A DNA stretch of 64,000 bases from Bdellovibrionales bacterium (GCA_965204055.1 OZ241967.1:1318737-1382736); one strand, 5' to 3'. Positions 1,040-56,252 are shown, numbered from the stretch's first letter. The notes: generated from the sequence alone by a model not told the origin. Made by a program: numbers and translations.

Positions 1040-3439
1040 TTAGCCTTTTCTTTCCACTACTTTTACCATTTCGTTGTAATGCGTTTTATCAACCTCTTCT
1101 ATCCATTTGAAAATATCTCTTATAACTGGATAGCTTTCTCCCATAAGATTTTCTGCTGTGTCTTCGTTGATTTCAATTTTATCACTATGGGAATATTTAT
1201 TTATAAAATTGTGAATTTTCTCTTTAATTTCAGGAGTTGTTTTTTTACAGTTCGTGAGACCCGTATCTAATAAAATACCTAAATCAGAGCGGTGCTTTGG
1301 ATATTTAAAGTAAAAAAAAGATTCCAGCAGTTTTCTGGATAAATTTGCAGTCAAAAATGCTTGATTAATATCCAGATTGCTTGAGTCTTTAAAATTAAAA
1401 AGACTTTCAAAAATATAATGATACTCTGAATTATATTTAAGAAGGCTGTCAGGCATGTTGTCCAATTTAGCATTGCGTGTGCCTTGATCAGTCGGGGAAG
1501 GAGATTGTTTTTTATAACTGTTAGACATATTTTCTAATTCATTATTTTGATGAGGGATGGATACTTTTGCATTGACTATGAAAAAGTGTGCTGTGGGAGA
1601 GTTAGATTGTTTTTCTCTTTTACGATTTTTATTTCTCTTGATTAGCCAGTCTCGCACCAATTTAAAATAAGTAAAATTGTGTGTAAATACGAATAGCTGT
1701 TTAGCTTTCCCACAATGGGAGCGCAAAAATGAATACGCCTGAAACAAATTATTTGAATCAAAACTGGACATAGGATCATCTATAACAATAATACTATCTT
1801 TAACTTTGTTGTTTTTTTCTGTAAGTTTGGTAATAAAATAAATAAAGGCTATAGCTCTTTTTTCTCCTTCACTTAAGTATTGGCTGTGTTGCTCTTCCTG
1901 ATCTCGTATAATATCATATCCTTTATTTTTCTTGTTAAATTTAAGAGATAGGTTATTTCTGCCTAAAAACTTGTATAGATGTGAGTTGATTTTTTGTGCT
2001 CCAATCCCTTCATTAGAAAGAGAAGCTTCCAGTTTTTGAATTTTTGTTTTTCTATCTCTATCTTGTTTATCTAATTCTTTAATATTGTTTTTTTGTTTTG
2101 CTAAATTGTTCATCTTTTGATAATAATTAAAATTTTTAATTTTTTCAGTCGCATAATGAAGTTCAAGAGCTTTTTTTCTCTTTTTTGTTTCTATTTCAAA
2201 ATTGTTTGTTTTTTGATTATGCTTTTCCACAAGTTTTTTAATATTTTCAATATGAGAGTTCAGTTTTTGAAATACAAACTCATCTAAGCTATCAATAACC
2301 AATGATGTATTAAAAGGATTTTTGATTTTTTCTTGTATAAGATTTTTCCATTTTTCAAGTAAATTATTTATTTCTTTTGATGTGGAAATTAAATTGTTAG
2401 AATCTTTTTTAAAGTTTTCCTCAAATTCCTTATAAAACTTTTCTCTACTCGGAAGTTTATCGTCTATCTGGATAAAAAGCCCACTGATTGATTCAGAAAC
2501 TCTTTGTAAATTGTTCTTAAAGTTTTCAAACTCTTTATTAAAATGCCCTTCCAGTTGTTTAATACGTTCTACTGGCAGGGTATTGTTACAAAATTCACAT
2601 TTGTCAGATTTATGTTTTTTATGTATTTTAATGCCTGTTTCGACCCACGACTGTATATCACTTTTTAAAACAAATCGCTCTATTGTGTTACTTACAACAC
2701 TTTTACTTAACAGTTTAGAGATTTCTGTTTCTTTAGTTTTAAGTTTTTCAAAATTAATTACAGGCAAATTTAATTCAATTTTATCTTTTTTGTTAGGCTT
2801 TGCTCCTTCTATACATTGTTTTACTTGTGTTTCTTTTAATAAGCTTGATTTTTCTTTTACTACTTTTTTGTTTTCATTCATAAATTGTTCTAATTTTCTT
2901 TTATCATAGTTCATAAAATAATTGTCATTTGTATCAATAGTTTGTAGATTCTGCTTTATGGATTTAGCGGTCTGGGTCATAAATTTTAATATTTCTTTTT
3001 CAGAATCTCTTATATCATTTTCTATTTTTTGGTTGTTTTTAATACTAATTTGTTGTTTCTCTTTTAATTGGTTTAATTGTTTTCTTTCACCAATTTTTTC
3101 TTCTGCTATAAGTAAAATGCTTTTTACAGAATTGTCCCAGTCAATATTTTCTTTAATGAAAGAGTTATTAAATATATGTAGATTTAAGTTTAACTTGCTT
3201 AAATTTTTCTGTGTTATTTTGTTTTTGTTTTCCATAGTGATAGAAAACTCTGATGAAGAAAATCTGTCGGGCAGTTTTTTCTTTTTTAGTAATTCAAATA
3301 AGGAAACAAGAGTTGTTTTTCCACTCCCGTTCCACCCATAGATTAAATTGAATTTATTAAAATCCTGAACATCTTTATTTGTTTGAGAATAGTCTTTAAA
3401 AATTCCAAAATTTTTAAGGTGTTTTATGTTTTTTATCAT
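1040..3439 (-). CDS. rloC: RloC-like anticodon nuclease: ABC/AAA_13-type ATPase with a coiled-coil zinc-hook insert and a PrrC-type C-terminal domain
   Basis: 799 aa. P-loop GWNGSGKTT, signature-like LSEGEKRAIAF and Walker B IIVIDDPMSSFD. These are separated by about 450 aa of Lys/Glu-rich coiled coil containing a CxxC loop (KCEFCNN). The C-terminal part has an R-x3-E...H pattern (SRKLLESFFYF ... KYSHSD), as in PrrC/RloC nuclease domains. It is embedded in a type I R-M locus, as prrC/rloC usually are. Confidence 0.75.
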   Translation of the reverse strand: MIKNIKHLKNFGIFKDYSQTNKDVQDFNKFNLIYGWNGSGKTTLVSLFELLKKKKLPDRFSSSEFSITMENKNKITQKNLSKLNLNLHIFNNSFIKENIDWDNSVKSILLIAEEKIGERKQLNQLKEKQQISIKNNQKIENDIRDSEKEILKFMTQTAKSIKQNLQTIDTNDNYFMNYDKRKLEQFMNENKKVVKEKSSLLKETQVKQCIEGAKPNKKDKIELNLPVINFEKLKTKETEISKLLSKSVVSNTIERFVLKSDIQSWVETGIKIHKKHKSDKCEFCNNTLPVERIKQLEGHFNKEFENFKNNLQRVSESISGLFIQIDDKLPSREKFYKEFEENFKKDSNNLISTSKEINNLLEKWKNLIQEKIKNPFNTSLVIDSLDEFVFQKLNSHIENIKKLVEKHNQKTNNFEIETKKRKKALELHYATEKIKNFNYYQKMNNLAKQKNNIKELDKQDRDRKTKIQKLEASLSNEGIGAQKINSHLYKFLGRNNLSLKFNKKNKGYDIIRDQEEQHSQYLSEGEKRAIAFIYFITKLTEKNNKVKDSIIVIDDPMSSFDSNNLFQAYSFLRSHCGKAKQLFVFTHNFTYFKLVRDWLIKRNKNRKREKQSNSPTAHFFIVNAKVSIPHQNNELENMSNSYKKQSPSPTDQGTRNAKLDNMPDSLLKYNSEYHYIFESLFNFKDSSNLDINQAFLTANLSRKLLESFFYFKYPKHRSDLGILLDTGLTNCKKTTPEIKEKIHNFINKYSHSDKIEINEDTAENLMGESYPVIRDIFKWIEEVDKTHYNEMVKVVERKG

Positions 3440-3477
3440 ATTTTTGTCCTTATTTTTTATATTTTATATTTAACTCA

Positions 3478-8088: not shown

Positions 8089-8163
8089 TGTTAGTTTCCT
8101 TTTTTATTAGGTTTCATTGTTAGTTTCCTTTTTTATTAGGTTTCATTGTTAGTTTCCTTTTTT
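8077..8163. repeat. three perfect 29-bp tandem repeats carrying the hsdM RBS and start codon
   Basis: The unit attaggtttcattgttagtttcctttttt occurs at 8077-8105, 8106-8134 and 8135-8163. Counted by hand, no mismatches. Confidence 0.95.
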
Positions 8164-8932
8164 ATAAAAGTTTCTTCAATACTGAGTTTATTAAAATATG
8201 TTTTTTTTCGTCTACTGTTTCTTGTAAAAGTTTTTCCCGTGCTCTTAATTTTAATAAACACACAATTTTTTTTTGAATACTCATAGAGGGCAGAGGAATT
8301 TTAAAATTCATTAGATCGATTCTGGAAATAAAAGGTAGAGCAGAACCTGTAAGATGCTTTTGGACATAGCCCCTTATAGTAAAGCTTTGATTTAAAGCCC
8401 AACACAGGTAATCTGAATCAATATAATTAACTTTAGGGCGCAAAATATAAAAATGTGCCATTGGTAATGTGTTGTTAATTGGCCCTGTGTATCGAAACGC
8501 GCCAGGATTTAGTTTAGAAAGATATAGGACATCATTTTTTTGAACAAGATATTTGCTTATAAATTTGCTTTTTCGCTCAGGAATAAACATTTGTTCTAAA
8601 CCATCCAGTTTTATATGATATAATATGTCGCGACAGGCAGATTTTGCCTGTATAAGGTTATAACTTTTATATTTTTCTTTCGGGTTTATAAGGTGTAGGG
8701 CTTTGCCTGTTTCTTCTGAGGAAAAGTTAGAATAGGGTACGCTTACTTCTGATAATTTGTGGAACTTTGTTTTTAATTTCTGAGGTGGTTCTGCTGGGTC
8801 ATTAAGATTTTTATCTGTAAAAGCAAAAGGAAGGTGAGCTTTTATCTTCTGTGCAAATCCTCTAACCTGAAAGCCAGTTTGAATAGCAATAAGGTTCGAT
8901 AATATGGCTTCTTTAGATTTAAAACGAGACAT
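8162..8932 (-). CDS. half-size HsdS-like specificity protein (single TRD)
   Basis: 256 aa. The C-terminal part (ALPFISRIDLMNFKIPLPSMSIQKKIVCLLKLRAREKLLQ) matches the TRD-plus-conserved-helix pattern of HsdS. It lies directly upstream of hsdM on the same strand. Confidence 0.7.
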   Translation of the reverse strand: MSRFKSKEAILSNLIAIQTGFQVRGFAQKIKAHLPFAFTDKNLNDPAEPPQKLKTKFHKLSEVSVPYSNFSSEETGKALHLINPKEKYKSYNLIQAKSACRDILYHIKLDGLEQMFIPERKSKFISKYLVQKNDVLYLSKLNPGAFRYTGPINNTLPMAHFYILRPKVNYIDSDYLCWALNQSFTIRGYVQKHLTGSALPFISRIDLMNFKIPLPSMSIQKKIVCLLKLRAREKLLQETVDEKKHILINSVLKKLL

Positions 8933-9331
8933 TTATGCCCTCCTTAATCTCTTTGAGCTTAATTTGCACCTCCAAACAACTCGGGATTTTATTATTTATC
9001 ATTTATGCCTTCCTTCTGAGCTATTAATATAGATGTTTTAGATTTAAAGCGAGGCATTTATGCCCTCCTTCAGAGCTATTTTAAAAAAAAACTGTATTTT
9101 TTATTTATTCAAAAATATAAAATTAAGTATGTCAAGAAAAAAATTGCATAAATTAAAAATTCAATAAAAAATATGTAAAAAGTGGTTTTAAGTGGTTTTT
9201 GATGCTAAGCATAAAATTTTTCTTGAATTTTAATAAGTCTTGTGCGATAAATTCATCATACCCCCAGTTACGGCCTTGAGCCGGCTGGCCCCGGGAGCCT
9301 GAGCGACCGGTTTTTTTTTACCTTAGTTTAT

Positions 9332-9376
9332 ATGAAAAAAGTTATAGCTTTTATAGATGGGTTCAACCTTTATCCC
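9332..9376 (+). pseudogene. NYN-domain (LabA-like) gene stub, cut off by an IS end
   Basis: MKKVIAFIDGFNLY is a typical NYN-domain N-terminus. Homology stops where the IS1634-type end begins. Confidence 0.45.
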
Positions 9377-10058
9377 GACTTCCGCTAAACCGCAGTGCAA
9401 TAAATGAGTGATTTCCGACACTTACAAATTTCTGGTGCCACACATTTTTAAGATTTAGTTCAAGGAGTGGAGATAAATTTAGACACTCTTTTAAGTCCTA
9501 AGGCCTCGTATATGGATCTTATTTCTTTTGTGCTTTTAGAGGGCATGCGATAAAGATTTTTGTTTGCGTCCTCTATAAGGCTATATTGATCTCTTTTTAA
9601 AATCTCTCTCATCTGCCTTATGCTGAAGTTTAATCCTCTTTGTTCCATCCGATACTTCATAGTATAGGAAAGAGAGTAAGCTAAGAAGCATATAGCTATA
9701 TGGGCCTCTATTCTTTTCCTCTTCCAATGGTAAATGGGTCTCATCTTAAGGTTGTGTTTGCACACACGAAAAGCCTCTTCTATCTTCCAAAGTCTCCTGT
9801 ATCGGGTCAGTATCTCTTGAGGGGTTTGCTCTGTTCTTATGTTGGTTATTACTCCATGCAACCCATCCCACTTACTATCTTCTTTTATCTTTTGTTCGTT
9901 TAATGTAGCTTTTGTCTTTTGAACTGTGACATACTTTTTTGTTCCATAATTAGAGATAAGGCTTTTTATAGGAATTTGGTTTTTCTTTACTTTTTTCATC
10001 AGTCTTTCAATGAGTCTTAGTCTATCGGACTTGTTCTTCTTGGCTCTCTTCTTAGAGT
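9374..10058 (-). mobile_element. IS1634/IS4-family IS remnant (3' part only) with a transposase C-terminal fragment (ORF 9460..10074)
   Basis: The ORF fragment contains WDGLHGVITN, RYRRLWKIEEAFRVCKHNLKMRPIYHWKRKRIEAHIAICFLAY, typical of IS1634-type DDE transposases. The 5' part is missing, replaced at 10059 by an IS5-type element. The terminal ~85 bp (9374-9459) recur at 56123-56252. Confidence 0.7.
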
Positions 10059-10734
10059 AGTCGGCCCTGAACAAATGCTATTTTGTTAAAAAGCAGGTTG
10101 ATTTTTTATAAAATTATAATTTTGAATCTGTTTTTTCAACCAGCAAAAAAAGAACAAAAAGAAAGACCGCATGATCTTTCTCATATTAAACGCACTTGCT
10201 ACTAAAATAGGATTGATCTTATCTCCTTCTATCCCATGCAAATAGTTTACCCCCATACGATGCTCCTGTTTAATATGACCTATCACCGGCTCAATCGCCG
10301 TTCTCCTTTTTAAAGCTCTCTTCAACTTAGGAGATAATCGCCTCATCCCTGATATAAACACACTCTTTCCTAACAGCCTCATCCGATAAATCAAATACAT
10401 ACTTCAGGTAAATTAAACCCACAACTAATCGCACAGGAAGAGCAGGACGCCCCCTGTCTGAAGGAAAAAAAGTCTTAAACTTCCTCTCAAATTTTGACCA
10501 ATCTATACAATCTGCTAATTGAACAAGACCCATTTTCATATTTAAAAAATCTACTAAACGGGGCCGACCTAATTCCAATTGCTCACAATCTCTTTCAGAC
10601 TTCTTAGGCTTCATTTTTACCTCCAAACTTGCAAGGTTTTTAAACCTCTTTATATTTTCCTTGCAAATATTTTCCTTGCAAATTATAAAAAAATCAAGTG
10701 ATAATAATGCGTTAACATTTATTCAGGGCCGACT
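10059..10734 (-). mobile_element. IS5-family element, internal-deletion derivative (676 bp) of the intact copy at 48628-50103
   Basis: Both ends are near-identical to the full copy (agtcggccctgaacaaat... / ...attcagggccgact). The two ORF pieces (10327..10626 N-terminal, 10086..10400 C-terminal) match the first ~90 and last ~95 aa of the 442-aa transposase. About 800 bp are missing. Confidence 0.85.
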
Positions 10735-18511: not shown

Positions 18512-18661
18512 ACCAACATGGTCATCTATAGGAGTCAGTTCTGATTAAATGTTTTTTATCCTCTAAACTGAATAGCCAAATTGTTGGCAAACTGCAAAGC
18601 CAACAACTTGGCTTTGCAATCCCTTGAAGGCGAGAATCTCTTAACTTTTTAGGTGTGAATA

Positions 18662-19778
18662 ATGTTTAAGTTTTATAAAGCCTTAACTTTTTTTTTGCGC
18701 AGAATAATTTTAGTCTTGCCGTTTTTTGCAACAGCTCAAAATCCAGTTGAAGCTCAACAACTTATTCGTTTTTCAAGAGGTTTCGCATACAAGGCTATAT
18801 CAGGACAAAGCATCAGTTTGGAATTACAAAACAATGAAGTAGATCTATCTCCTTTTGTTGGAATGATTAATAGGTTAAAAGAAACTGATTACGCAGAAGA
18901 TCTATTACATATGGAAAAAACGATTGATAGATCAATTCGTAAAGCAATCACCCCCCTTTGTGAACAAAGTTTATCTAAAGATAACTGTATTAAAACAGCT
19001 AAAAATAGTTTGGAAAATGCTTTTGATAAGGTGGTTAAGGAAAAAGAGAATCAGATTCTCTATCCTGAAAGTTTTTACAGCGTTTATGAACGATCTCCAA
19101 CAGAGATGAATAAAATACTCCAAAGAAACAATGAAATTTTGGATCGTGAATGCCAGAAGGGCCGTGATCAAAGAGACCTAACCATTGGCATATTCCTACT
19201 TCATCCCAACCATTGGCCTGAGCTACAAGATAAATTAAAATATAAAGATAAAGATTTTTTGAACGAAGTTTTACACACAGCTTATAATAGGTTTAAAGAA
19301 TCTTATGAATACCCTGAACAGTGTCTTGATCCGGCCAACAAGAACCATAGAGTTTGCAAAAAAATGCAAAAAAATTTGGCTATCATAGTGCAAAGATTTA
19401 CTTATCTAACAGAGTTAGTTTATGGCCGGGATATATTAAAAACCACCGAAGCTGAAGCCCCTTGTGTAGATTGTGTAGAAGAGGTTTTAACTCAAGAAGT
19501 AAGCACTTTAGACCAGCTTTTTTCTATTTTAGAAGAGCATGGCTTTTGTTCTAACCCCGCCCCTGGAGAAGAAAAACAAAGCAGAGGAATTATCAAGAAT
19601 TAGAGAGACAATAAAATCTATCGAATATTTGCAGGAATATTCTCTCGAGCAGGAAAAAACTATGCAAGTAAAAAATCCCCACGCAGACGCCCAGCATGAA
19701 GATGACTTCCACTGGTACGATTCTGCTCTTAAAGAACTAAGAGAAGAGTTAGAAATAGTGTCGGCTTGGCCGGATTGA
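18662..19778 (+). pseudogene. HExxH-family paralog C with the metalloprotease domain deleted and a frameshift
   Basis: ORF 18662..19603 aligns with the N-terminal ~300 aa of A/B up to APGEEKQ. ORF 19539..19778, in another frame, aligns with the C-terminal coiled coil (AEELSRIRE ... LKELREELEIVSAWPD). The HExxH region is absent. Confidence 0.75.
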
Positions 19779-19795
19779 TTCTTCCCCTGACTAAT

Positions 19796-19973
19796 TAGTA
19801 GCCCGTGAAAAAGGTTGTTATTTTGATTGGATTCCCACTTGAAAAAGGCTGAAAGCCCAAAGGACTTTCATTTTAGGTTCTGGATACCCGCTTTCAAGGG
19901 TCTGCAAAGCCAAGTACTTGGCTTTGCAGTTTAGAGATGAATGAGGTTTATCACAGACGACTAATTAAAGTGT
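19796..19973. mobile_element. MITE copy D
   Basis: Terminal inverted repeats agtagcccgtgaaaaag / tatcacagacgact. Internal palindrome ctgcaaagccaagtacttggctttgcag. Flanked by AATT on both sides. Confidence 0.65.
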
Positions 19974-20352
19974 GTTTTATCCGTTTTTTAAGTTTAAGAA
20001 TGTGTTTATATGCACAACTAAAGTCCAGAAAAAATCATTTTTTAAAGTCTGACCTCAATGATACCGATTTAATTTTAACAGAATCTTACTCTTTACCCTA
20101 AAACAAGCAAGATTCCTGCTCTTAAGCAGGAATGACGACGGTAAAGTTACAAGATTCTTGCCTACAAGGCTGAAAAACCAACAACTTAGCTTTGCAGAGT
20201 AGAGATGAACGAGGTTATTCACAAACGAATAGGTTAAAGGATAAAATGAAAAATATATTGATTAAAAGACAGAAATTACAATACTTTGCAAAGTGGCTTT
20301 GCACTATACTCGCCAGTCGATATTGTTGTAAGTTGTTGAAATTATTAAGGAT

Positions 20353-20372
20353 CCCCCCCCCCCCCCCCCCCC
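20353..20372. repeat. homopolymeric C20 tract
   Basis: Counted directly: 20 consecutive C in an AT-rich intergenic region about 100 bp upstream of ORF 20470. Confidence 0.97.
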
Positions 20373-20469
20373 GCACCGCGTCATTTTTCAGCACGGTTCA
20401 TCGTCTGATATAGAACCACCCTGTGTCCAAAAGAAAGAGGTTTTACCTACTAAGTGGCTTTTTAAAAGT

Positions 20470-20823
20470 GTGTTGTTTCTGACTCGCTTAGTAATTTTAG
20501 TTCTGCTTTGTGTACCAGTTTTTTTATTTGAACTTCAAGTAATATCAGTCCTCATTCCCTCAGCAGAGGGAGACACAACCTGTAACCTCCCAAGCTATAC
20601 AGGTTGTGAGGAAGATATTTTTTACTTTTATACTCCACAAGTGGCCAGAGAATGCACTAAAGATAGATGGCAAGAAGGTAATACGCATTTTCATCCACCC
20701 AACTACGGAACGGGGTGGTGTGAGGTTGATCTTAGAGCAAAAAAAATTCCAAGAACTTTTTTAACCTTTTTAAACGAGGTTTTTCCCGATGCAGATATAA
20801 ACGAAATAAGCGGTGCGCGTTAA
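20470..20823 (+). CDS. small secreted/membrane-anchored Cys-containing protein
   Basis: GTG start, hydrophobic N-terminus LVILVLLCVPVFLF. No recognised domain. Confidence 0.5.
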   Translation: MLFLTRLVILVLLCVPVFLFELQVISVLIPSAEGDTTCNLPSYTGCEEDIFYFYTPQVARECTKDRWQEGNTHFHPPNYGTGWCEVDLRAKKIPRTFLTFLNEVFPDADINEISGAR

Positions 20824-20955
20824 AAGCAAACCCCAAAAACAAAAATAAGGAGGAGGAAGATGAGAAGTAAAAATCTACAACTAATAAACTTAAACAAGGA
20901 GTAAGAAAATGAAAACAATAAACTTAAAAATTAACCAAAAAAAAGGAGCAAGAAA

Positions 20956-22011
20956 ATGAACACAATAAATAAAATTATGAAAAAAACAAGCTTTTTCAAA
21001 GGATTACCAGGAAATATAAGTCTTTTGGCTTTTGTTCTGATAAGTGGTTCTTTTACAGCTTATGGAGACTCTTCTGCCATCCCTTGTGATTATATATCAC
21101 ATCGTAATGCCAACCTTCAGAATTGGAGCTCTCAAACAGGATTTGTATACTGCAATAAAAATGGTAAAATAGTTAAGGGTCATGTGTTAAACAGTGCAAG
21201 AGTGAACTATGTATCTGTGTGGGTCACCACTGCCAAAGGAGAGGCTACACAACACAAAGTGCCTCTTCGTTCTGGCATCCAGGTAAAAGATATATCCGAA
21301 TACCAATATAACATTGCTGATCATCCTGAAGTGGCAAGACAATTACGAAGGATGGAAGTGGCAAAAGTGGGTGACACCATTGCTTTGGCTCCCAATGGAA
21401 TAGGGCTTTCAAATAGCACTAAAATCTTGGAAAATGGGGCTGATTTTTTTGTCCAACCCAATGTAGAATCTAATGAGTCTTTGCAATTAAAAAACTCTTC
21501 CCAATTCAGCTCTTTAGCAGAATACACTAAAAACAACGAAGGATACCACAGGCCAACGATAAATTGTAAATATGAAACAGAACCCACTGTTGTTAAAGGA
21601 CGTTGTGCTCGATCAGGCCGTTATAATATCTCCACTTGTGTGGGAAAAGTGAGATGTGCTATTAGGAGAGATGGCAAACGCACCCCTTATGAGGAGAGCT
21701 TCGCTCGTATTCGCTCCGGTGATTCAGTCTCTATAGAAATGGGAGGGGGTTTGGGATTAGATGATTGGCAGGAAATCCAAATAAAAAATGTAACTTGTGA
21801 TCTTGCCAGAGTTCGCTATAATGATGATGATCCTTACACTTGTCCAACAGCAACCGAATGTATGTTGGATGAAGATCCCTATACAAAAGCCGTTTCATCG
21901 AGACAAGTGCGGTATCAACAGACACCTAACATGTACAATCAAGATGAATATCAACACTACCCAAAAAATGTCGAAGAAAGACGTAGCGGGTCTGCTGGAT
22001 CTACACAGTAA
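20956..22011 (+). CDS. secreted protein (351 aa), unknown function
   Basis: Signal peptide (ISLLAFVLISGSFTAYG), multiple Cys, RBS aaggag. Preceded by two mini-ORFs. Confidence 0.65.
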   Translation: MNTINKIMKKTSFFKGLPGNISLLAFVLISGSFTAYGDSSAIPCDYISHRNANLQNWSSQTGFVYCNKNGKIVKGHVLNSARVNYVSVWVTTAKGEATQHKVPLRSGIQVKDISEYQYNIADHPEVARQLRRMEVAKVGDTIALAPNGIGLSNSTKILENGADFFVQPNVESNESLQLKNSSQFSSLAEYTKNNEGYHRPTINCKYETEPTVVKGRCARSGRYNISTCVGKVRCAIRRDGKRTPYEESFARIRSGDSVSIEMGGGLGLDDWQEIQIKNVTCDLARVRYNDDDPYTCPTATECMLDEDPYTKAVSSRQVRYQQTPNMYNQDEYQHYPKNVEERRSGSAGSTQ

Positions 22012-22028
22012 CACCTTGGAGGTTTATT

Positions 22029-22388
22029 ATGAAATTAAATACATATAAAAAATTTGTTCAGACAGGTTGGAGTTTTGCACTTGTTTTGGCAATGTTGTTT
22101 TCACTCACTTCTCATGGTGCTATAGAAAATGCTGTTATAGAGGGTATAGTGGTGAGTTACGACAAGAAAACAGTTACCCTTTTACAAAGCCAGGGCCAAA
22201 GAGTTAAAGTCCCCAGAAAGTCCATCCCTAAGAATATTAAATTAAAAACAGGTATTAAAGTGGAGGCTGTTTTAGATAGTGAAAAGTTAATGAAACAAAT
22301 TAGAGAAATCAAAGCAGAAGAGCAGAAGACTAAAAAAACTAAAAATACCCTATCGCAAGAAGAACCAGCCCGCCGGGGAAAGAAATAG
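22029..22388 (+). CDS. secreted protein (119 aa), unknown function
   Basis: Signal peptide, Lys-rich tail, RBS ggagg 6 nt upstream. Same strand and tightly spaced with 20956..22011. Confidence 0.6.
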   Translation: MKLNTYKKFVQTGWSFALVLAMLFSLTSHGAIENAVIEGIVVSYDKKTVTLLQSQGQRVKVPRKSIPKNIKLKTGIKVEAVLDSEKLMKQIREIKAEEQKTKKTKNTLSQEEPARRGKK

Positions 22389-22478
22389 GAATATAAAAAA
22401 GCCATCATTTTAAAATGAGTTGGATGATTCGAATAAAATGACCAAAGGGTGGTTTTTATGAACCACCTCTTTTCTTTA

Positions 22479-22570
22479 TTAAAAATAAAAACTCGGGTTT
22501 TTTGTCTCTTGCTCTCTAATCCAATCATAAGTCCAACGCATATTGGACATAACATTTTTTCTGTAATCAA
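22479..22570 (-). pseudogene. C-terminal remnant of a Dam-like methyltransferase paralog
   Basis: IDYRKNVMSNMRWTYDWIREQ is nearly identical to the C-terminus of the MTase at 34539..35777 (DYRKNVMSNMRWTYDWIKEK). Confidence 0.55.
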
Positions 22571-22901
22571 TAGCAAGTTTTGCATAGTGTAATTGCTTTT
22601 TAACCCAAGTTATATACGCAAACCAACAAGCTTTAATTGGTTTTGCATAATGTAATTGCTTTTCAGCCTCTATGTAGTAGCACGTGAAAAAGCTCTGATT
22701 AGATGAGTTACTTGTTTGTTTATTGGAAAGGTCCCCCTTGGAAACTAAAAAGCCAAGTTGTTGGCTCTGCAAAGCCAAATCATTGGCTTTGCAGTCCCTT
22801 GCAGGCGGGAATCCAGTCAAAAAAAAGACTTTATCACGGAGGACTATGTATAGGAAATATTAAACTAAACCCCCATTTTTTTTCATTTATCGGTTTAAAA
22901 A

Positions 22902-24572
22902 TCAACAGACTTTGAGTTTGAGTATTCTGTCTATGCGGAACATTCTTTCGTCCTGCATATTTAAGCAAAAAGCTCGCATGCCTTGATATTTTGTGCCCTT
23001 GTAAGTTTGCCAACCACATTCCAAAGGTTCCACCACAAAGAAGGATTTTAGGTCATTGGTTTTGAGATACTGGATCTTCAGTTGTTTTTTGCTTTCGATA
23101 GCCTTTTGAATAAGAATCATTTTATCTTGGACAGACATTTCCCTTTCTGCTTGGCGATATTGCCATTGGGTTAAAAATTTCATAATTCGATAATCAACAC
23201 GGATATGTTGTTTTTGGATAGGCACTTTCAACACAAGACCTTTAAAAGAAACACATCGGCTGAGGGCCACATAGGCTTGACCGCTGGCAAACATACCCCG
23301 GCTCATATCTATAATCACTCGCTCAAAAGTTTTGCCTTGACTTTTATGAATAGTGATGGCCCAGGCCAAACGAAAAGGGAATTGAGTAAAAGTGCCCACT
23401 AAATCTGAAGTAATAGCTTTCTTTTTTTCGGAGAAGGAAAATTGATAAATTTCCCATGTATGAGGAGACACAGAAACGATTTTATTTTCTGGATAAAGCT
23501 GAACTCGCACAAAATATTCTTTTCTGTTCTCTATATTTGCGCGATCCTCTATGTCCAAGTGGTTTTCTATGTCCACGCTATTCTCTATGTCCAAGTGGTT
23601 TTCTATGTCCACGCTATTCTCTGTGTCCACGCTATTCTCTGTGTCCACGCGAACCTCTATACCTACAATACGACCCACACTGCCATTCACCCATCGCTTT
23701 TTTGAATCATTGTTGAGGAGCATAACTTGCGCGCCTTTTTTAAATTTTAAAAGCTCATGGGTAGGAAAATACTCCTTTCCCACTTGGCCAGATATAATTG
23801 CTGAAGACTGAAAAACTTTGCCTTTTAGTTTTTTTAAACGTTCTTCGTTAATTTTATCAGCGGTTTTGTTGATAGCATTTAAACTTATATAAAACTGATT
23901 TTTTTCTGGCTTAAAAGAAGGAAGAAAACGGCGGTTTAAACAATCAATGTCATACTGCTGAACAGAGTTGTTTCTCACTCGATTTAACAGTTCTATAAAT
24001 TTTTGATCTTTTTGCCTGTAAACTTTTTCTAACTCTATGATTTCCATTTTAAACTTGTGCAGAGCTTTTGCACTAAAAAAAAAGGGAGATTCATACTGAG
24101 AGGAAAATACTTCTTTTTCCTTTGCTGTTACCACAGGAGGTAGCTGATAGAGATCACCGATAAAAATCATCTGCACTCCTCCAAAGGGCTTTGTTTTTTG
24201 AGGTCCATATCGACGTAAAAAAATATCTACACAATCTAAAAGATCGGCCCGTACCATAGATATTTCATCAATAATCAAGGTTTTTAAATTTTTATAAATA
24301 GCAGGATCTTTAGGCTTTTTTTTGCTTTTTTTTATTTTCTCTACATGAACATCTATATAAAATTTAAAAAAATTGTGTATGGTTTGGCCCTTTATATTTA
24401 ATGCGGCTACTCCTGTAGGAGCCAGTATCACAGGCTTTTTATCTGTAATAGAGCAAAAATATTCCAACAAAGTGGATTTACCTGTCCCGGCCTTTCCGGT
24501 GATAAAGAGGTTTTTTGTGGCTCTCATACCTTGAAGAGCCTGATTAAACTGAGGATTAATGTCTAACTTCAT
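22902..24572 (-). CDS. PIF1/RecD-family helicase with a WYL-like C-terminal domain and an internal 6-aa repeat insert
   Basis: Walker A GKAGTGKST, LIIDEISMV, FIGDLYQLPPV, ITIHKSQGKTF and ALSRC. C-terminal ~90 aa ending MFRIDRILKLKV resemble a WYL domain. The start is taken at MKLDINPQ (ATG 24572) because the upstream part of the ORF is made of 60-bp direct repeats. Confidence 0.85.
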   Translation of the reverse strand: MKLDINPQFNQALQGMRATKNLFITGKAGTGKSTLLEYFCSITDKKPVILAPTGVAALNIKGQTIHNFFKFYIDVHVEKIKKSKKKPKDPAIYKNLKTLIIDEISMVRADLLDCVDIFLRRYGPQKTKPFGGVQMIFIGDLYQLPPVVTAKEKEVFSSQYESPFFFSAKALHKFKMEIIELEKVYRQKDQKFIELLNRVRNNSVQQYDIDCLNRRFLPSFKPEKNQFYISLNAINKTADKINEERLKKLKGKVFQSSAIISGQVGKEYFPTHELLKFKKGAQVMLLNNDSKKRWVNGSVGRIVGIEVRVDTENSVDTENSVDIENHLDIENSVDIENHLDIEDRANIENRKEYFVRVQLYPENKIVSVSPHTWEIYQFSFSEKKKAITSDLVGTFTQFPFRLAWAITIHKSQGKTFERVIIDMSRGMFASGQAYVALSRCVSFKGLVLKVPIQKQHIRVDYRIMKFLTQWQYRQAEREMSVQDKMILIQKAIESKKQLKIQYLKTNDLKSFFVVEPLECGWQTYKGTKYQGMRAFCLNMQDERMFRIDRILKLKVC

Positions 24573-24624
24573 TTTCCAACTTTTATAGACTCCCACGGCT
24601 AAAATCGTGGTGCTCTGTCTTTGA

Positions 24625-24773
24625 CCGCATAGTGATATGCCAGTCAAATGACCAGAGCAATAACCTTTAGACTTTGCGGAAACTCCGCATAGTGATATGC
24701 CAGTCAAATGACCAAAAGTGACCCCCCCGACGATTCAAGCCACTGGACCCGTAATATGACAGTCAAATGACCA
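24625..24773. repeat. three direct repeats of about 30 bp at 60-bp spacing upstream of the helicase gene
   Basis: ccgcatagtgatatgccagtcaaatgacca occurs at 24625-24654 and 24685-24714 (identical). A degenerate third copy lies at 24748-24773. Confidence 0.8.
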
Positions 24774-47682: not shown

Positions 47683-47722
47683 GCTGGTATCTGGCTACTC
47701 TCCCAGAGTGTTAGCCCTCAAG
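47683..47722 (-). repeat. copy of the 3' ~40 nt of the 5S rRNA gene
   Basis: gctggtatctggctactctcccagagtgttagccctcaagg aligns with 52084-52124. It shares the preceding gctaaaattaggggataaaaaaa with the 38048 copy. Confidence 0.7.
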
Positions 47723-47824
47723 GAAATGCTAATATTTTCTATAAAGACTGCACTGTTTTTCTTTTCAGGGATTAAAAATTGTAAAAAAATTCAAAGAAAC
47801 TGTTTAAACACCGATAAAAGGATT

Positions 47825-48559
47825 ATGAAAGCTTTTTTGATCATTGTTTTGTTTCCGTCTGTGGCTTATGGTTTTTTTAAAGACATTCCATATAAGAAGA
47901 CTGAAATATGCGAAAAAATAAAACCCGATTATGACAAAGCCCGTGCCGATATGGCCAGAGCCATAGCTAATAAAGAAAAAGCCTATGCCTATAAGGAAAA
48001 AGCCTATGCCTCTTTTAAAAAAGCCACAGCTAATAAAGAAAAAGCCTATGCCTATAAGGAAAAAGCCTATGCCTCTTTTAAAAAAGCCACAGCTAATAAA
48101 GAAAAAGCCGATGCCGATATGGCTAAAGCTTATATCAAAGAGGCTTATATCAAAACCGATGCTAATATAGCCAAAGCCTATTCCTCTTATAAAAGAACCA
48201 TAGCCAATCAAGAAAAAGCCTATGCCTATAAGGAAAAAGCCTATGCCTCTTTTAAAAAAGCCACAGCTAATAAAGAAAAAGCCTATACCTATATGTCTAA
48301 AACTTATATCAAAGCCGATGCTGATATGGCCAGAGCCACAGCTAATAAAGAAAAAGCATGGGGAGATATAAACAAAGCTTATAAAGACGCTTTAAAATAC
48401 AAATGTTTTAAACAATCCACCGCCTGTAATGAGTCAATTAAAGATATGACAAAAACCAATACCGATATATCTAAAGCCATTGCCAACATAAAAAAGTATT
48501 GTTCTGGAAATAATAAAGTCGGGGGTTCTGGTAAAGACACCAGCCAGAAGACTTTGTAA
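47825..48559 (+). CDS. secreted repeat protein (KEKAYAYKEKAYASFKKATAN repeats)
   Basis: Signal peptide MKAFLIIVLFPSVAYG. Three near-identical 21-aa units plus degenerate copies. Confidence 0.65.
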   Translation: MKAFLIIVLFPSVAYGFFKDIPYKKTEICEKIKPDYDKARADMARAIANKEKAYAYKEKAYASFKKATANKEKAYAYKEKAYASFKKATANKEKADADMAKAYIKEAYIKTDANIAKAYSSYKRTIANQEKAYAYKEKAYASFKKATANKEKAYTYMSKTYIKADADMARATANKEKAWGDINKAYKDALKYKCFKQSTACNESIKDMTKTNTDISKAIANIKKYCSGNNKVGGSGKDTSQKTL

Positions 48560-48627
48560 TCACGATCATTGACAAAAAACATACCCCTTGGGAGCGCATA
48601 AAAAAACTTCAATAATACTCAATACTT

Positions 48628-50103
48628 AGTCGGCCCTGAACAAATACTATTTTGTTAAAAAGCAGGTTGATTTTTTATAAAATTATAATTTTGAATCTGT
48701 TTTTTCAACCAGCAAAAAAAGAACAAAAAGAAAGACCGCATGATCTTTCTCATATTAAACGCACTTGCTGCTAAAATAGGATTGATCTTATCTCCTTCTA
48801 TCCCATGCAAATAGTTTACCCCCATACGATGCTCCTGTTTAATATGACCTATCACCGGCTCAATCGCCGTCCTCCTTTTTAAAGCTCTCTTCAATTTAGG
48901 AGATAATCGCCTCATCCCTGATATAAACACACTCTTTCCTAATGGATGATATGCCTTACCCTTATACCCTCTATCTACAAATATCTCTCTGACAGACTTA
49001 CCCGACATCCTCTCTACCTGCTCTATCGCCAGCCCCAAGGTCTTGCCGTCAAAAGGATTGCCAAAAAAAGACTTAGCACCTACTATCCAATTACCCTTAC
49101 TGGTCACTGTAAAACTCACCTTGTTACCAAATTCATATCGCTTGTGTGCCTTACCTTTTGATAAACACTCCACATAAGGCTCATGCACACTATACACCTT
49201 ATCCTTGCTCAATCTTTCCTGAGAAAATACCCGCCGACTTAAATTCAATATATCTTGTAACTTATCTGATGGAGCACAACACTTTCTGTCTATGTCCCGA
49301 ATAACACGACCCAAAAAATTCCTCTGCCTCTTGACTGAAACTTGCCCCCTTTTATACTGACGAGCATGAAAATAACGGGCAGACTTAATCATCTCCTCCT
49401 TGCCTTTGAACTTGTAGCTTTGACGAAGCTTCACCCCCTCTTCTGTCGCTACTTTTACCAACTTCTCACGAGACTTGTTGATTAACTTTGAATCCACAGG
49501 ATAACAAATATTCTTACTCTGAACTGTTGTATCTACTATCACTTGCTTATACTCGCTAACTCGTAATAAACCTAACTTTTGAGCTACACTTAGAGTCTCC
49601 TTCAACAACTCCTCTGCTCCCACCTCCTCTATACGATGCCTCCAACGAGTCAATGAACTGGCATCAATGCTCAGCTTATGCTGAAAATACTCAAACCCAC
49701 AAAAATACTGCCAATAAGGATCACTCAACAACCTATCCACTACAGCCTCATCCGATAAATCAAATACATACTTCAGGTAAATTAAACCCACAACTAATCG
49801 CACAGGAAGAGCAGGACGCCCCCTGTCTGAAGGAAAAAAAGTCTTAAACTTCCTCTCAAATTTTGACCAATCTATACAATCTGCTAATTGAACAAGACCC
49901 ATTTTCATATTTAAAAAATCTACTAAACGGGGCCGACCTAATTCCAATTGCTCACAATCTCTTTCAGACTTCTTAGGCTTCATTTTTACCTCCAAATTTG
50001 CAAGGTTTTTAAACCTCTTTATATTTTCCTTGCAAATATTTTCCTTGCAAATTATAAAAAAATCAAGTGATAACAATGCGTTAACATTTATTCAGGGCCG
50101 ACT
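48628..50103 (-). mobile_element. intact IS5-family insertion sequence (about 1.48 kb)
   Basis: Inverted repeats agtcggccctgaacaaata / catttattcagggccgact. Flanked by a direct repeat ACTT (or TACTTA if the ends are drawn 1-2 nt inward). Confidence 0.9.
48655..49983 (-). CDS. IS5-family DDE transposase (442 aa from the ATG at 49983)
   Basis: VDTTVQSKNICYPVDSKL, FVDRGYKG, IEPVIGHIKQEHRMGVNYLHG. Confidence 0.9.
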   Translation of the reverse strand: MKPKKSERDCEQLELGRPRLVDFLNMKMGLVQLADCIDWSKFERKFKTFFPSDRGRPALPVRLVVGLIYLKYVFDLSDEAVVDRLLSDPYWQYFCGFEYFQHKLSIDASSLTRWRHRIEEVGAEELLKETLSVAQKLGLLRVSEYKQVIVDTTVQSKNICYPVDSKLINKSREKLVKVATEEGVKLRQSYKFKGKEEMIKSARYFHARQYKRGQVSVKRQRNFLGRVIRDIDRKCCAPSDKLQDILNLSRRVFSQERLSKDKVYSVHEPYVECLSKGKAHKRYEFGNKVSFTVTSKGNWIVGAKSFFGNPFDGKTLGLAIEQVERMSGKSVREIFVDRGYKGKAYHPLGKSVFISGMRRLSPKLKRALKRRTAIEPVIGHIKQEHRMGVNYLHGIEGDKINPILAASAFNMRKIMRSFFLFFFCWLKKQIQNYNFIKNQPAF

Positions 50104-51993: not shown

Positions 51994-52083
51994 AATAACC
52001 CGCTTTTTTTATTTCTTCAGCTATCCTTATGGTTGATCATAATTCAATATATTTCCAGAAAAGCAAAATAGTCAATAAAAAAA

Positions 52084-52199
52084 GCTGGTATCGTGCTACT
52101 CTCCCAGAGGGTCAGCCCTCAAGTACCATCGCCGCTGACAGGCTTAACTTCTGTGTTCGAGATGGGAACAGGTGTGGCCCCGTCGCTATTGACACCAGC
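52084..52199 (-). rRNA. rrf: 5S ribosomal RNA
   Basis: The minus strand reads gctggtgtcaatagcgacggggccacacctgttcccatctcgaacacagaagttaagcctgtcagcggcgatggtacttgaggg...ctgggagagtagcacgataccagc. These are canonical 5S helices and loop motifs. Confidence 0.95.
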
Positions 52200-52210
52200 A
52201 ATTCTTTTTT

Positions 52211-52343
52211 TTAACAACATCATTCAATATCATTTACCCACACTATGACTGGATTCCCCCAGACGCGAGAATGACAACTTTTAACATCATTCAATATCAT
52301 TTACCCACACTATGACTGGATTCCCCCAGACGCGGGAATGACA
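52211..52343. repeat. two tandem ~65-bp repeats in the 23S-5S spacer
   Basis: ttaaca(ac)atcattcaatatcatttacccacactatgactggattcccccagacgcg(a/g)gaatgaca occurs at 52211-52276 and 52281-52343. A third partial gcgggaatgaca lies at 52394-52405. Confidence 0.9.
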
Positions 52344-52483
52344 TATAAAAAAAGTAACTCACAGACTCCCACAGAAGGCAAAAAACAACCTTTGCGGGAA
52401 TGACATATCAAAAGTCTGTAACTCAAAACATTCTTAGCTGAGTCCTTATATAACAAGGACTGTCTATTCAGTCAGAAAAATGT

Positions 52484-55499
<3,016 letters not shown>

Positions 55500-56122: not shown

Positions 56123-56252
56123 CCCGACTTCAGCATAACGCAATGCAATAAATGAGTAATTTCGGATACTTACAAATTTCTGGTGCCACACATTTTTAAG
56201 ATTTGGCTCAAGAAGTGGAGATAAATTTAGACACTCTTTTAAGACCTAAGGC
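56123..56252 (-). mobile_element. solo end fragment of the IS1634-type element
   Basis: About 130 bp collinear with 9374-9503 (cccgactt...tctggtgccacacatttttaagattt...ggagataaatttagacactcttttaag). Confidence 0.7.

Follow-up and report, generated by a model that had tools for sequence, protein, structure and literature searches.

A poly-C tract inside the first gene of a secreted-protein operon in a Bdellovibrionales bacterium: a probable slipped-strand frameshift switch

Introduction

In the contingency loci of Neisseria and Haemophilus, repeats lie within the region that encodes the signal peptide, as do the poly-G tract of pilC and the CTCTT units of opa. Phase variation may also work through the spacing of a promoter, the type represented by opc and porA of Neisseria, and in fim2 and fim3 of Bordetella, a stretch of C residues placed between the activator-binding region and the -10 element acts on transcription. 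The contingency loci of N. meningitidis have been surveyed (PMC5084427). In the pilus clusters of Bifidobacterium, the first gene is split by a G-tract into two annotated ORFs, as has been shown experimentally (PMC9187656).

This study concerns a run of cytosines found in a 64,000-nt stretch of DNA from a Bdellovibrionales bacterium (the window). The tract probably serves as a contingency switch that works by slipped-strand frameshifting, in the first gene of a secreted-protein operon. The class is well known. What goes beyond the textbook is that tracts of 16-21 nucleotides are kept across species, accompanied by a flank whose conservation is independent of the reading frame.

Results

The C-tract and the gene that contains it

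An earlier note on this DNA counted exactly 20 cytosines and judged so long a run very unlikely to have arisen by chance, and on both points we concur. The G+C content of the window is 35%, the second-longest run of C or G within the 64 kb is 7 nt, the longest A/T runs are 9 nt, and the number of C/G runs of 20 expected per 64 kb from base composition is 2.5e-10. The run is uninterrupted, as it is in each of the three other loci described below (C18 in L001, C21 in L082, and C16 in L083), all of them pure simple sequence repeats beyond the length (about 7 or more for G/C) at which slippage can be expected. It is preceded by ...AAGGAT (in longer form ...TTGAAATTATTAAGGAT) and followed by GCACCGCGTCAT..., with 107 nt separating it from ATG 20246 on the left and 97 nt from GTG 20470 on the right. 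The three co-oriented ORFs that the earlier note placed downstream (20470..20823, 20956..22011, and 22029..22388) are indeed present, and the two larger of their products, both encoded downstream of the first ORF, carry hydrophobic N-terminal cores of the signal-peptide type. The features of the locus are collected in Table 1.

Table 1. Features of the tract-bearing locus, in coordinates of the window.
Feature	Position	Strand	Basis
C20 homopolymer; codes for poly-proline; slippage-prone element	20353..20372	+	Sequence and run count
Leader part of the tract-bearing gene; ATG 20246 after AAAGGA; encodes MKNILIKRQKLQYFAKWLCTILASRYCCKLLKLLRI	20246..20352	+	ORF list, SD energy, orthologous start in L001
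Left cassette flank TGTAAGTTGTTGAAATTATTAAGGAT, encoding CKLLKLLRI	20327..20352	+	Four-locus alignment
Right flank GCACCGCGTCAT, invariant, GC-rich	20373..20384	+	Directly after the tract, one copy per locus
C20 product: 55-aa truncated peptide, stop TAG 20411-20413 (putative OFF state)	20246..20413	+	Simulated translation; ORF 20192..20413
Remainder of the gene, in another frame: linker, predicted signal anchor and Cys-rich extracytoplasmic domain	20374..20823	+	ORF frame, hydropathy, homologs
Conserved non-coding block (AAAGTCCAGAA...TAAAGTCT-N12-ACCGATTT)	20019..20075	+	Comparison of window, L082 and L083
Triple tandem SD+ATG unit, about 47 nt each	20836..20978	+	Repeat family D5; SD energies -12.2, -8.0
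Second gene: 351-aa Cys-rich secreted protein, orphan family, hypervariable patch 21067-21205	20956..22011	+	ORF list, comparisons
Third gene: 119-aa secreted protein	22029..22388	+	ORF list, comparisons
Terminator-like hairpin and T-run closing the three-gene unit	22447..22478	+	Terminator scan

The tract had also been called intergenic. This is how it appears in the public annotation (P0002), which, like the earlier note, begins the first gene at GTG 20470 and gives it 117 aa. That description does not hold: the ORF that begins at ATG 20246 enters the tract, and the frame of 20470..20823 is open from 20332, through the tract. The Shine-Dalgarno (SD) sequence of ATG 20246 lies close to the start codon and is of average strength, its duplex energy of -5.4 kcal/mol falling mid-range among the genes of the window, while GTG 20470 (-2.7) has essentially no SD. 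Judged from the sequence, the 117-aa annotation with its 'intergenic' tract mis-describes the gene.

When the gene was rebuilt in silico with 14-25 C residues and each version translated, tracts of 15, 18, 21 or 24 gave proteins of 190-193 aa, and every other length gave 52-56 aa. A change of one unit thus shifts the frame and truncates the product, and the same logic applies in L082 and L083. The full-length form consists of a helical leader, poly-proline, a linker free of stops (20374-20469), then a signal anchor at about 20470-20556, and finally a Cys-containing domain of ~90 aa. Hydropathy of the 191-aa form shows one strongly hydrophobic segment, at residues 75-100. AlphaFold models of this protein are poor (pLDDT 59 and 56).

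CCC accounts for 15% of the proline codons in the window, and six in succession would be expected with a probability of about 1e-5. From this it follows that the homopolymer itself is maintained at the level of DNA, and its retention in three diverged lineages speaks for the same conclusion. There is no other run of at least three prolines in the 12,340 other residues of the window's proteins, and in the window, L001, L082, and L083 no other C-tract encodes four or more prolines in a row. As far as the sequences tell, what is conserved is the homopolymer, without its being a poly-proline motif.

A sister strain with a shorter tract

L001, a contig from ENA that encodes P0001, has ~97% DNA identity to the window. 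Its tract, at 9400-9417, is C18, read as PPPPPP, and a single gene of 191 aa is called there, running from ATG 9293 (the ortholog of ATG 20246) through the tract to the stop codon of the window's '117-aa' ORF. The two sequences are identical over the 342 nt to the left of the tract and the 583 nt to its right (925 nt), while the flanking genes have a dS of about 0.1, so the tract is the sole change in the gene. Near-identity to L001 (dS 0-0.02) extends over a segment from about 19790 to 23000, within which the two differ by the two extra C residues, by a 1-nt indel at 20010 and by patches at 21067-21205 and 21737-21769. The similarity of this segment, relative to the divergence outside of it, suggests a recent exchange.

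Length polymorphism between unchanged flanks (C20 versus C18) comes from one strain pair and from consensus assemblies, and a difference of 2 nt at a long homopolymer could be a consensus error. The names of certain contigs suggest long-read assemblies. Other indels within genes between the window and L001 are multiples of 3, and just one of the A/T runs of 7 or more (an A-run) differs in length between them, so neither assembly is riddled with homopolymer errors.

Might the tract have no function at all, as a product of sequencing, assembly or cloning, or as a neutral hypermutable run in the remnant of a decaying gene? Long homopolymers are error-prone in every sequencing chemistry (PMC9187656), and the window's gene is out of frame in the assembly and short, its 191 aa comparing with 646-701 aa in homologs. 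But the tract appears in four independent assemblies from different samples, its run uninterrupted in three diverged lineages of an AT-rich genome that avoids CCC, and in L082 the cassette heads intact, long ORFs. The earlier note had named an artefact as one outcome that would sink the idea of a switch. With regard to the tract's existence, an artefact of assembly or cloning is ruled out, since the same tract with conserved flanks recurs in the three assemblies other than the window. A cloning or tailing artefact was considered specifically, because GGATCC adjoins C20, and was rejected: the site is absent from the flanks in L082 and L083. All told, a tract devoid of function strikes us as extremely improbable.

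The cassette in distant relatives

An exhaustive HMMER search of 1.84 billion representatives found four further relatives, and the 90% clusters of P0005-P0008 are singletons. A scan of GTDB genomes with the 351-aa protein found nothing, JGI metagenomes scanned with the flank pattern and the family profile yielded no further loci, IMG/VR scanned with the tract plus flank gave no matches, and a word-index protein search gave no relatives beyond those known.

The tract is carried by four genomes representing three diverged lineages, with lengths of 16, 18, 20, and 21, all different. Two of the four assemblies are in frame, a proportion not distinguishable from chance. Common to them is a cassette consisting of a CK-LK-L-I leader, the C-tract and GCACYGCGTCAT, which heads related clusters of genes for secreted proteins. 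No second copy of the cassette was found in the window, L001, L082 or L083.

In L082, the tract is C21 (5163-5183), in frame within a 701-aa ORF (P0005). P0005 is 44% identical to the window's protein, in an alignment that starts at residue 24 of the 191-aa form and spans the tract region (...CKLLKYLRISPPPPPPPALRH...), with C21 at the same place, reading RISPPPPPPPALRH. In L083, which encodes P0006, the tract is C16 (2494-2509), out of frame as assembled. Here the cassette heads the cluster and precedes a different Cys-rich secreted protein of 292 aa. The leader begins at ATG 2370, with a strong SD (-8.7), and reads ...CCKYLKLLVIFT; GCACCGCGTCAT follows the tract. With C14, C17 or C20, the leader would be fused to the 292-aa protein, giving 356-358 aa. 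Taken as an internal signal anchor, the hydrophobic core in L083 is a weak one. Of two internal starts, TTG 2564 has an SD energy of +1.2 and ATG 2615 a moderate SD.

The sequences flanking the tract are conserved in different ways. On the left, the differences between lineages include synonymous changes that keep C-K-x-L-K-x-L-x-I, as expected for a translated sequence. The stretch from the tract to the signal peptide, 27-34 codons in length, is free of stops in exactly one frame in each of the three lineages, which by chance (0.067 stops per codon) would occur with a probability of about 0.1-0.15 per lineage and about 0.002 jointly. On the right, the 12 nt of GCACYGCGTCAT are invariant in all four loci, and in the window, L001, L082, and L083 they occur once, always directly after the tract. 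Yet a 1-nt indel further downstream causes them to be read differently: as HRV in the in-frame state of the window, and in L082 and L083 as A(L/P)RH. Conservation irrespective of frame hints at a constraint on the DNA itself, one that a frameshift model leaves unexplained. On a further reading, which we hold to be unlikely, it could reflect a cis-element that does more than allow slippage (a protein-binding site, for instance, or a boundary that tunes slippage), or else a device that combines slippage in replication and in transcription at unusually long tract lengths.

Perhaps the cassette is a dedicated, portable switch of a Bdellovibrionales-like lineage, set at the head of different secreted-protein operons, although we consider this on the whole unlikely. 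It may possibly occur twice in the source genome. P0007, a full-length, 646-aa member of the family, is encoded in the same genome but outside the window, and its annotated N-terminus (MLVLTRL...) corresponds in position to GTG 20470, so that a second, out-of-frame cassette may sit upstream of it.

The lengths of the tract bear also on the possibility that it is RNA polymerase that slips on the 16-21 C residues, producing mRNAs of mixed length and a roughly constant fraction in frame at any DNA length. In that case, the tract would set a level of expression or provide for two products instead of being a heritable ON/OFF switch, though such a mechanism could coexist with a switch in the DNA. 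Transcriptional slippage is known from runs far shorter than this one, operons that look healthy come with in-frame and with out-of-frame lengths alike, and downstream of the window's out-of-frame copy the operon is intact, with hardly a difference from that of the in-frame strain. Against this, slippage on runs of C or G is less documented than on runs of A or T, and the DNA lengths differ between genomes anyway, meaning that unless the differences are sequencing errors, replication slippage is at least also taking place. We therefore regard transcriptional slippage as a rather unlikely account of the tract. As a contribution it is expected at such lengths: it could blur the state encoded in the DNA, and it may make the OFF state leaky. 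How A/T runs in genes are selected against is a subject of PMC1088944.

Upstream region, promoters, and RNA elements

Apart from the tract cassette, only one block in the 5' region is common to the window, L082 (4797-4860), and L083 (2200-2262). It lies at 20019-20075 in the window, about 280 nt upstream of the tract, and by this comparison it is the best candidate for the promoter or regulatory site of the operon. Being the sole conserved non-coding block, it is likelier to be the regulatory region than is the tract. L082 and L083 have ...ATGACCGATAAT in this block. The block resembles sigma-28 elements (TAAAGTTT-N11-GCCGATAA), with none of the three sequences matching both halves well.

Around the tract, neither promoter hexamers nor sigma-54 motifs were convincing. 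No -35/-10 pair brackets it (38 nt separate the nearest TTGAAA from any -10-like hexamer), so the repeat is not situated, outside an ORF, between a -10 element and a -35 or activator site.

The earlier note had compared the tract with the C-stretches of the Bordetella fim promoters, which change the spacing of promoter elements. In a wider form of this model, the tract would be a spacer in a promoter or 5'-UTR, its length altering the distance between promoter or operator elements or the structure of the UTR, and with it the transcription of an operon beginning at 20470. The public annotation fits this in leaving the tract between genes. Both flanks are conserved as DNA, the right one in any frame, as would suit a protein-binding site, and a second appearance of the bipartite motif TGTAAG..GAAAT..GCAYTGCG, there lacking a C-tract, is found in another repeat of the window. 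But besides the lack of a -35/-10 pair around the tract, the ORF is continuous over it in L001 and L082, synonymous changes in the leader have left its peptide conserved, the conserved non-coding block is far upstream, and the tract takes part in no RNA structure. A role as spacer is in our estimation very unlikely. Of what was claimed, then, the general idea of a phase-variation device on a secreted-protein operon is supported, resting on four lengths in four genomes, a run that stays pure despite the rarity of CCC, and the dependence of an intact gene on length. What falls is the likeness to the Bordetella fim promoters, owing to the tract's place inside an ORF, the peptide-preserving substitutions in the leader and the want of a bracketing -35/-10 pair.

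The other repeat is 114 nt in length, with copies 93% identical at 9391-9504 (-) and 56139-56252 (-), just 3' of Rpn-like PD-(D/E)XK/HTH_Rpn_C genes, and the 23S rRNA has one of the two copies upstream. The repeat holds TGTAAGTNTCNGAAATNACT-CATTTATT-GCAYTGCG, which resembles both flanks of the cassette, with 8 nt in place of the tract. The likeness may reflect homology, a shared binding motif or chance, and the register of the alignment is ambiguous.

As to RNA elements, Rfam finds in the window only 23S and 5S rRNA. The fold of 20230-20480 is less structured than shuffled controls (z = +1.22), and the C-run within it is unpaired. No attenuator was found between tract and gene in the window or in L082. 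L083 has a terminator-like hairpin (2549-2565) following the stop codon of the out-of-frame leader, a weak one (1 found, 0.6 expected), so the loci do not show the attenuator-type terminator that would separate a leader ORF from the structural genes. Nor is the leader separate in all states, as in every lineage it is fused to the gene in one of the three length classes.

These results bear on a model in which the structural gene does start at GTG 20470, and the leader with its poly-proline constitutes a separate, cis-regulatory uORF. The length of the tract would determine where the uORF ends, and so govern reinitiation, occlusion, EF-P-dependent stalling or an attenuator, and ON and OFF could be the reverse of what a frameshift implies. 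The model accords with the tract-less members of the family, which start exactly at the signal peptide, with P0007 of the same genome starting at the equivalent of GTG 20470, and with the hairpin and the moderate SD of ATG 2615 in L083. However, neither GTG 20470 nor TTG 2564 of L083 has an SD, the window and L082 show no terminator-like site on the way from the tract to the structural part, that of L083 is at the level of chance, the RNA is less structured than its controls, and a linker that stays stop-free in the structural frame in three lineages goes unexplained. A regulatory uORF seems to us quite improbable.

The operon and its proteins

The terminator scan placed no candidate site in the gaps that separate the three genes, nor in the stretch from the tract to 20470. 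The first two copies of the triple SD+ATG unit open mini-ORFs of 14 and 16 codons (encoding MRSKNLQLINLNKE and MKTINLKINQKKGARK, each followed by a stop), and the third is the start of the 351-aa gene, its ATG overlapped by the stop of the second mini-ORF (ATGA). The array, identical in L001, looks like a translation-initiation region that has been triplicated, possibly with translational coupling.

The products of 20470, 20956, and 22029 have no hits in Pfam, and neither a Pfam or NCBIfam family, nor a solved fold, nor a confident model came out for the proteins of the operon. Among 5.8 billion clusters, the 351-aa protein has a single homolog, P0001, 95% identical. The larger of the two patches in which its gene differs from that of L001 (140 nt, 21067-21205) contains about 15 substitutions, mostly non-synonymous, plus a 6-nt indel, and has the look of localized diversification or of a gene-conversion patch; the smaller divergent patch is at 21737-21769. 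By sequence, then, the proteins of the operon are exported (as predicted), lineage-specific, and locally hypervariable.

The Cys-rich domain encoded by 20374..20823 aligns with P0005, P0006, and P0007. In the long homologs (646-701 aa), the N-terminal Cys domain is the same and is joined by pentapeptide repeats and, at the C-terminus, by a Cys-rich domain, and the 191-aa protein of the window looks like an internally deleted version of the family that has kept the ...G-A-R tail. In the related clusters, large Cys-rich secreted proteins alternate with secreted proteins of ~95-119 aa, homologs of the third gene coming after each large Cys-rich gene. P0006 and P0007, paralogs without a tract, begin directly at the signal peptide, which makes an N-terminal extension of 75 aa unusual for a Sec substrate.

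The large proteins of the clusters end in an invariant Arg (...SGAR, ...NATR, ...GSAR, ...GVTR), the set comprising the product of 20470..20823 in the window, P0005, P0006, P0007, and the products of 2564..3442 and 3749..4651 in L083. The tail may be a C-terminal signal for sorting or processing. In L082, a gene for a subtilisin-like S8 protease (8118..10541) follows the cluster.

Genomic surroundings

The window also carries 23S and 5S rRNA, genes for DnaK/DnaJ, a sigma-54 activator and type I R-M proteins, copies of IS5, and ankyrin and PD-(D/E)XK 'Rpn-like' genes. Its DnaK shares 85-86% identity with the DnaK of MAGs labelled Bdellovibrionales bacterium, and no more than 66% with any of the other matches. 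The 23S-5S pair (52083-55498, -) has no 16S within 8 kb upstream, hence the rRNA operon is unlinked; units of 61 nt are duplicated just downstream of the 5S (52216-52343). IS5-family segments at 10058-10672 and 48627-50041 are 99-100% identical, the copy at about 10 kb appearing to be partial and 48655..50076 encoding the transposase.

Close to the operon, REP-like palindromes (CTGCAAAGCCAAnnnnTTGGCTTTGCAG) are found in intergenic regions at 18592, 19902, 20170, 22749, and 22771, some of them sharing a longer extension (GGGATTCCCGC...). Between 13187 and 19778 are three tandem paralogs encoding a secreted protein of 630-660 aa, zinc-metalloprotease-like in its HExxH (ITHEVLHLLGLCDEY) and without a Pfam hit. 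The third (18662..19603 plus 19539..19778) is without its middle part, and its ortholog in L001 is split by a frameshift. On the other side, 22902..24707 (-) encodes a Pif1-like helicase with a C-terminal WYL domain, and contains at 23526-23660 in-frame tandem repeats of 18 nt (ENSVDT/ENHLDI units) that differ by one unit from L001. Tandem repeats of 21 nt, at least 9 copies in register, are present at 47915-48377, inside ORF 47708..48559.

Discussion

The tract is inside an ORF, its length determines the frame, it differs in length from genome to genome, and the cassette around it is conserved. All of these are direct observations, and the mechanism that we favor, frameshifting through slipped-strand mispairing, would connect them in the following way. 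Translation would begin at ATG 20246 and proceed through about 36 codons of leader and then the tract, as poly-proline. If the length of the tract is a multiple of 3, the ribosome would go on to the linker, the signal anchor, and the exported Cys-rich domain (190-193 aa). With other lengths, including C20, it would stop after 52-56 residues. Mispairing during replication would add or remove C residues, so that a cell's first gene would alternate, heritably and reversibly, between the intact and the truncated state, C20 being the OFF state and C18 the ON state. We infer that slippage in vivo is frequent and that the fused protein, which would yield peptides such as VIFQHGSSSDIEPPCVQK, is the functional form. 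Expression of the two downstream genes may also be lowered, by polarity or by loss of translational coupling. Two facts sit uneasily with this mechanism: the tract-less P0006 and P0007 start at the signal peptide, and the right flank is conserved as DNA whatever the frame.

If the switch works in this fashion, the stochastic behavior of contingency loci extends beyond host-restricted pathogens and gut commensals to an uncultured lineage related to Bdellovibrionales, one that has ankyrin and TPR proteins and many mobile elements. It would also mark an orphan secreted system, Cys-rich and associated with pentapeptide repeats, as a likely interface with prey, host or phage. In addition, the lengths of tracts in such assemblies should not be taken at face value.

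Among described systems, the operons of Bifidobacterium (B. breve bbr_0113a/b and bbr_1889a/b; PMC9187656) share with this locus a G:C homopolymer within the gene that opens an operon of exported or surface proteins, the annotation of two ORFs because the reference length is out of frame, a second ORF that has no efficient start, and a tract conserved across the species of a genus but variable in length. They differ in that their tracts are 10-12 nt rather than 16-21, and follow the Sec signal, whereas here the tract precedes the signal anchor, within an additional leader at the N-terminus. Neither the protein families nor the phyla are related, and the present locus is known from sequence alone. 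The nanH3 sialidase gene of Gardnerella (10.1101/2020.09.16.300947) is similar in having poly-C about 100 nt from the start of an ORF for an exported protein, full-length product only at multiples of 3 (otherwise peptides of about 40 aa), and an annotation that was misled. Its tract, however, has 8-14 C and directly follows the signal-peptide region of a stand-alone gene, whereas the tract studied here heads an operon. Heterogeneity within populations has been shown in Gardnerella, while here only assemblies are compared.

In pil1 of Streptococcus gallolyticus (PMC3894217), a repeat also lies in a short leader ORF at the head of a surface-protein operon, and the number of repeats sets the distance that the ribosome travels. 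That system relies on GCAGA pentamers and on attenuation at a transcription terminator downstream. The present repeat is a homopolymer whose leader becomes fused to the structural protein, and in two of the three lineages no terminator was found.

The fim2 and fim3 genes of Bordetella resemble this locus in their long poly-C, in slipped-strand mispairing and in the control of a gene for a surface structure, but the tract considered here is inside an ORF, 107 nt past the start codon, and is not bracketed by promoter elements. Finally, the contingency loci of Neisseria and Haemophilus are alike in slipped-strand frameshifting within the 5' coding region of genes for surface proteins, in a part of the protein that tolerates variation in length. 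Those loci belong to host-restricted pathogens, with many in each genome, whereas here there is a single tract in 64 kb, in an uncultured Bdellovibrionales-like bacterium.
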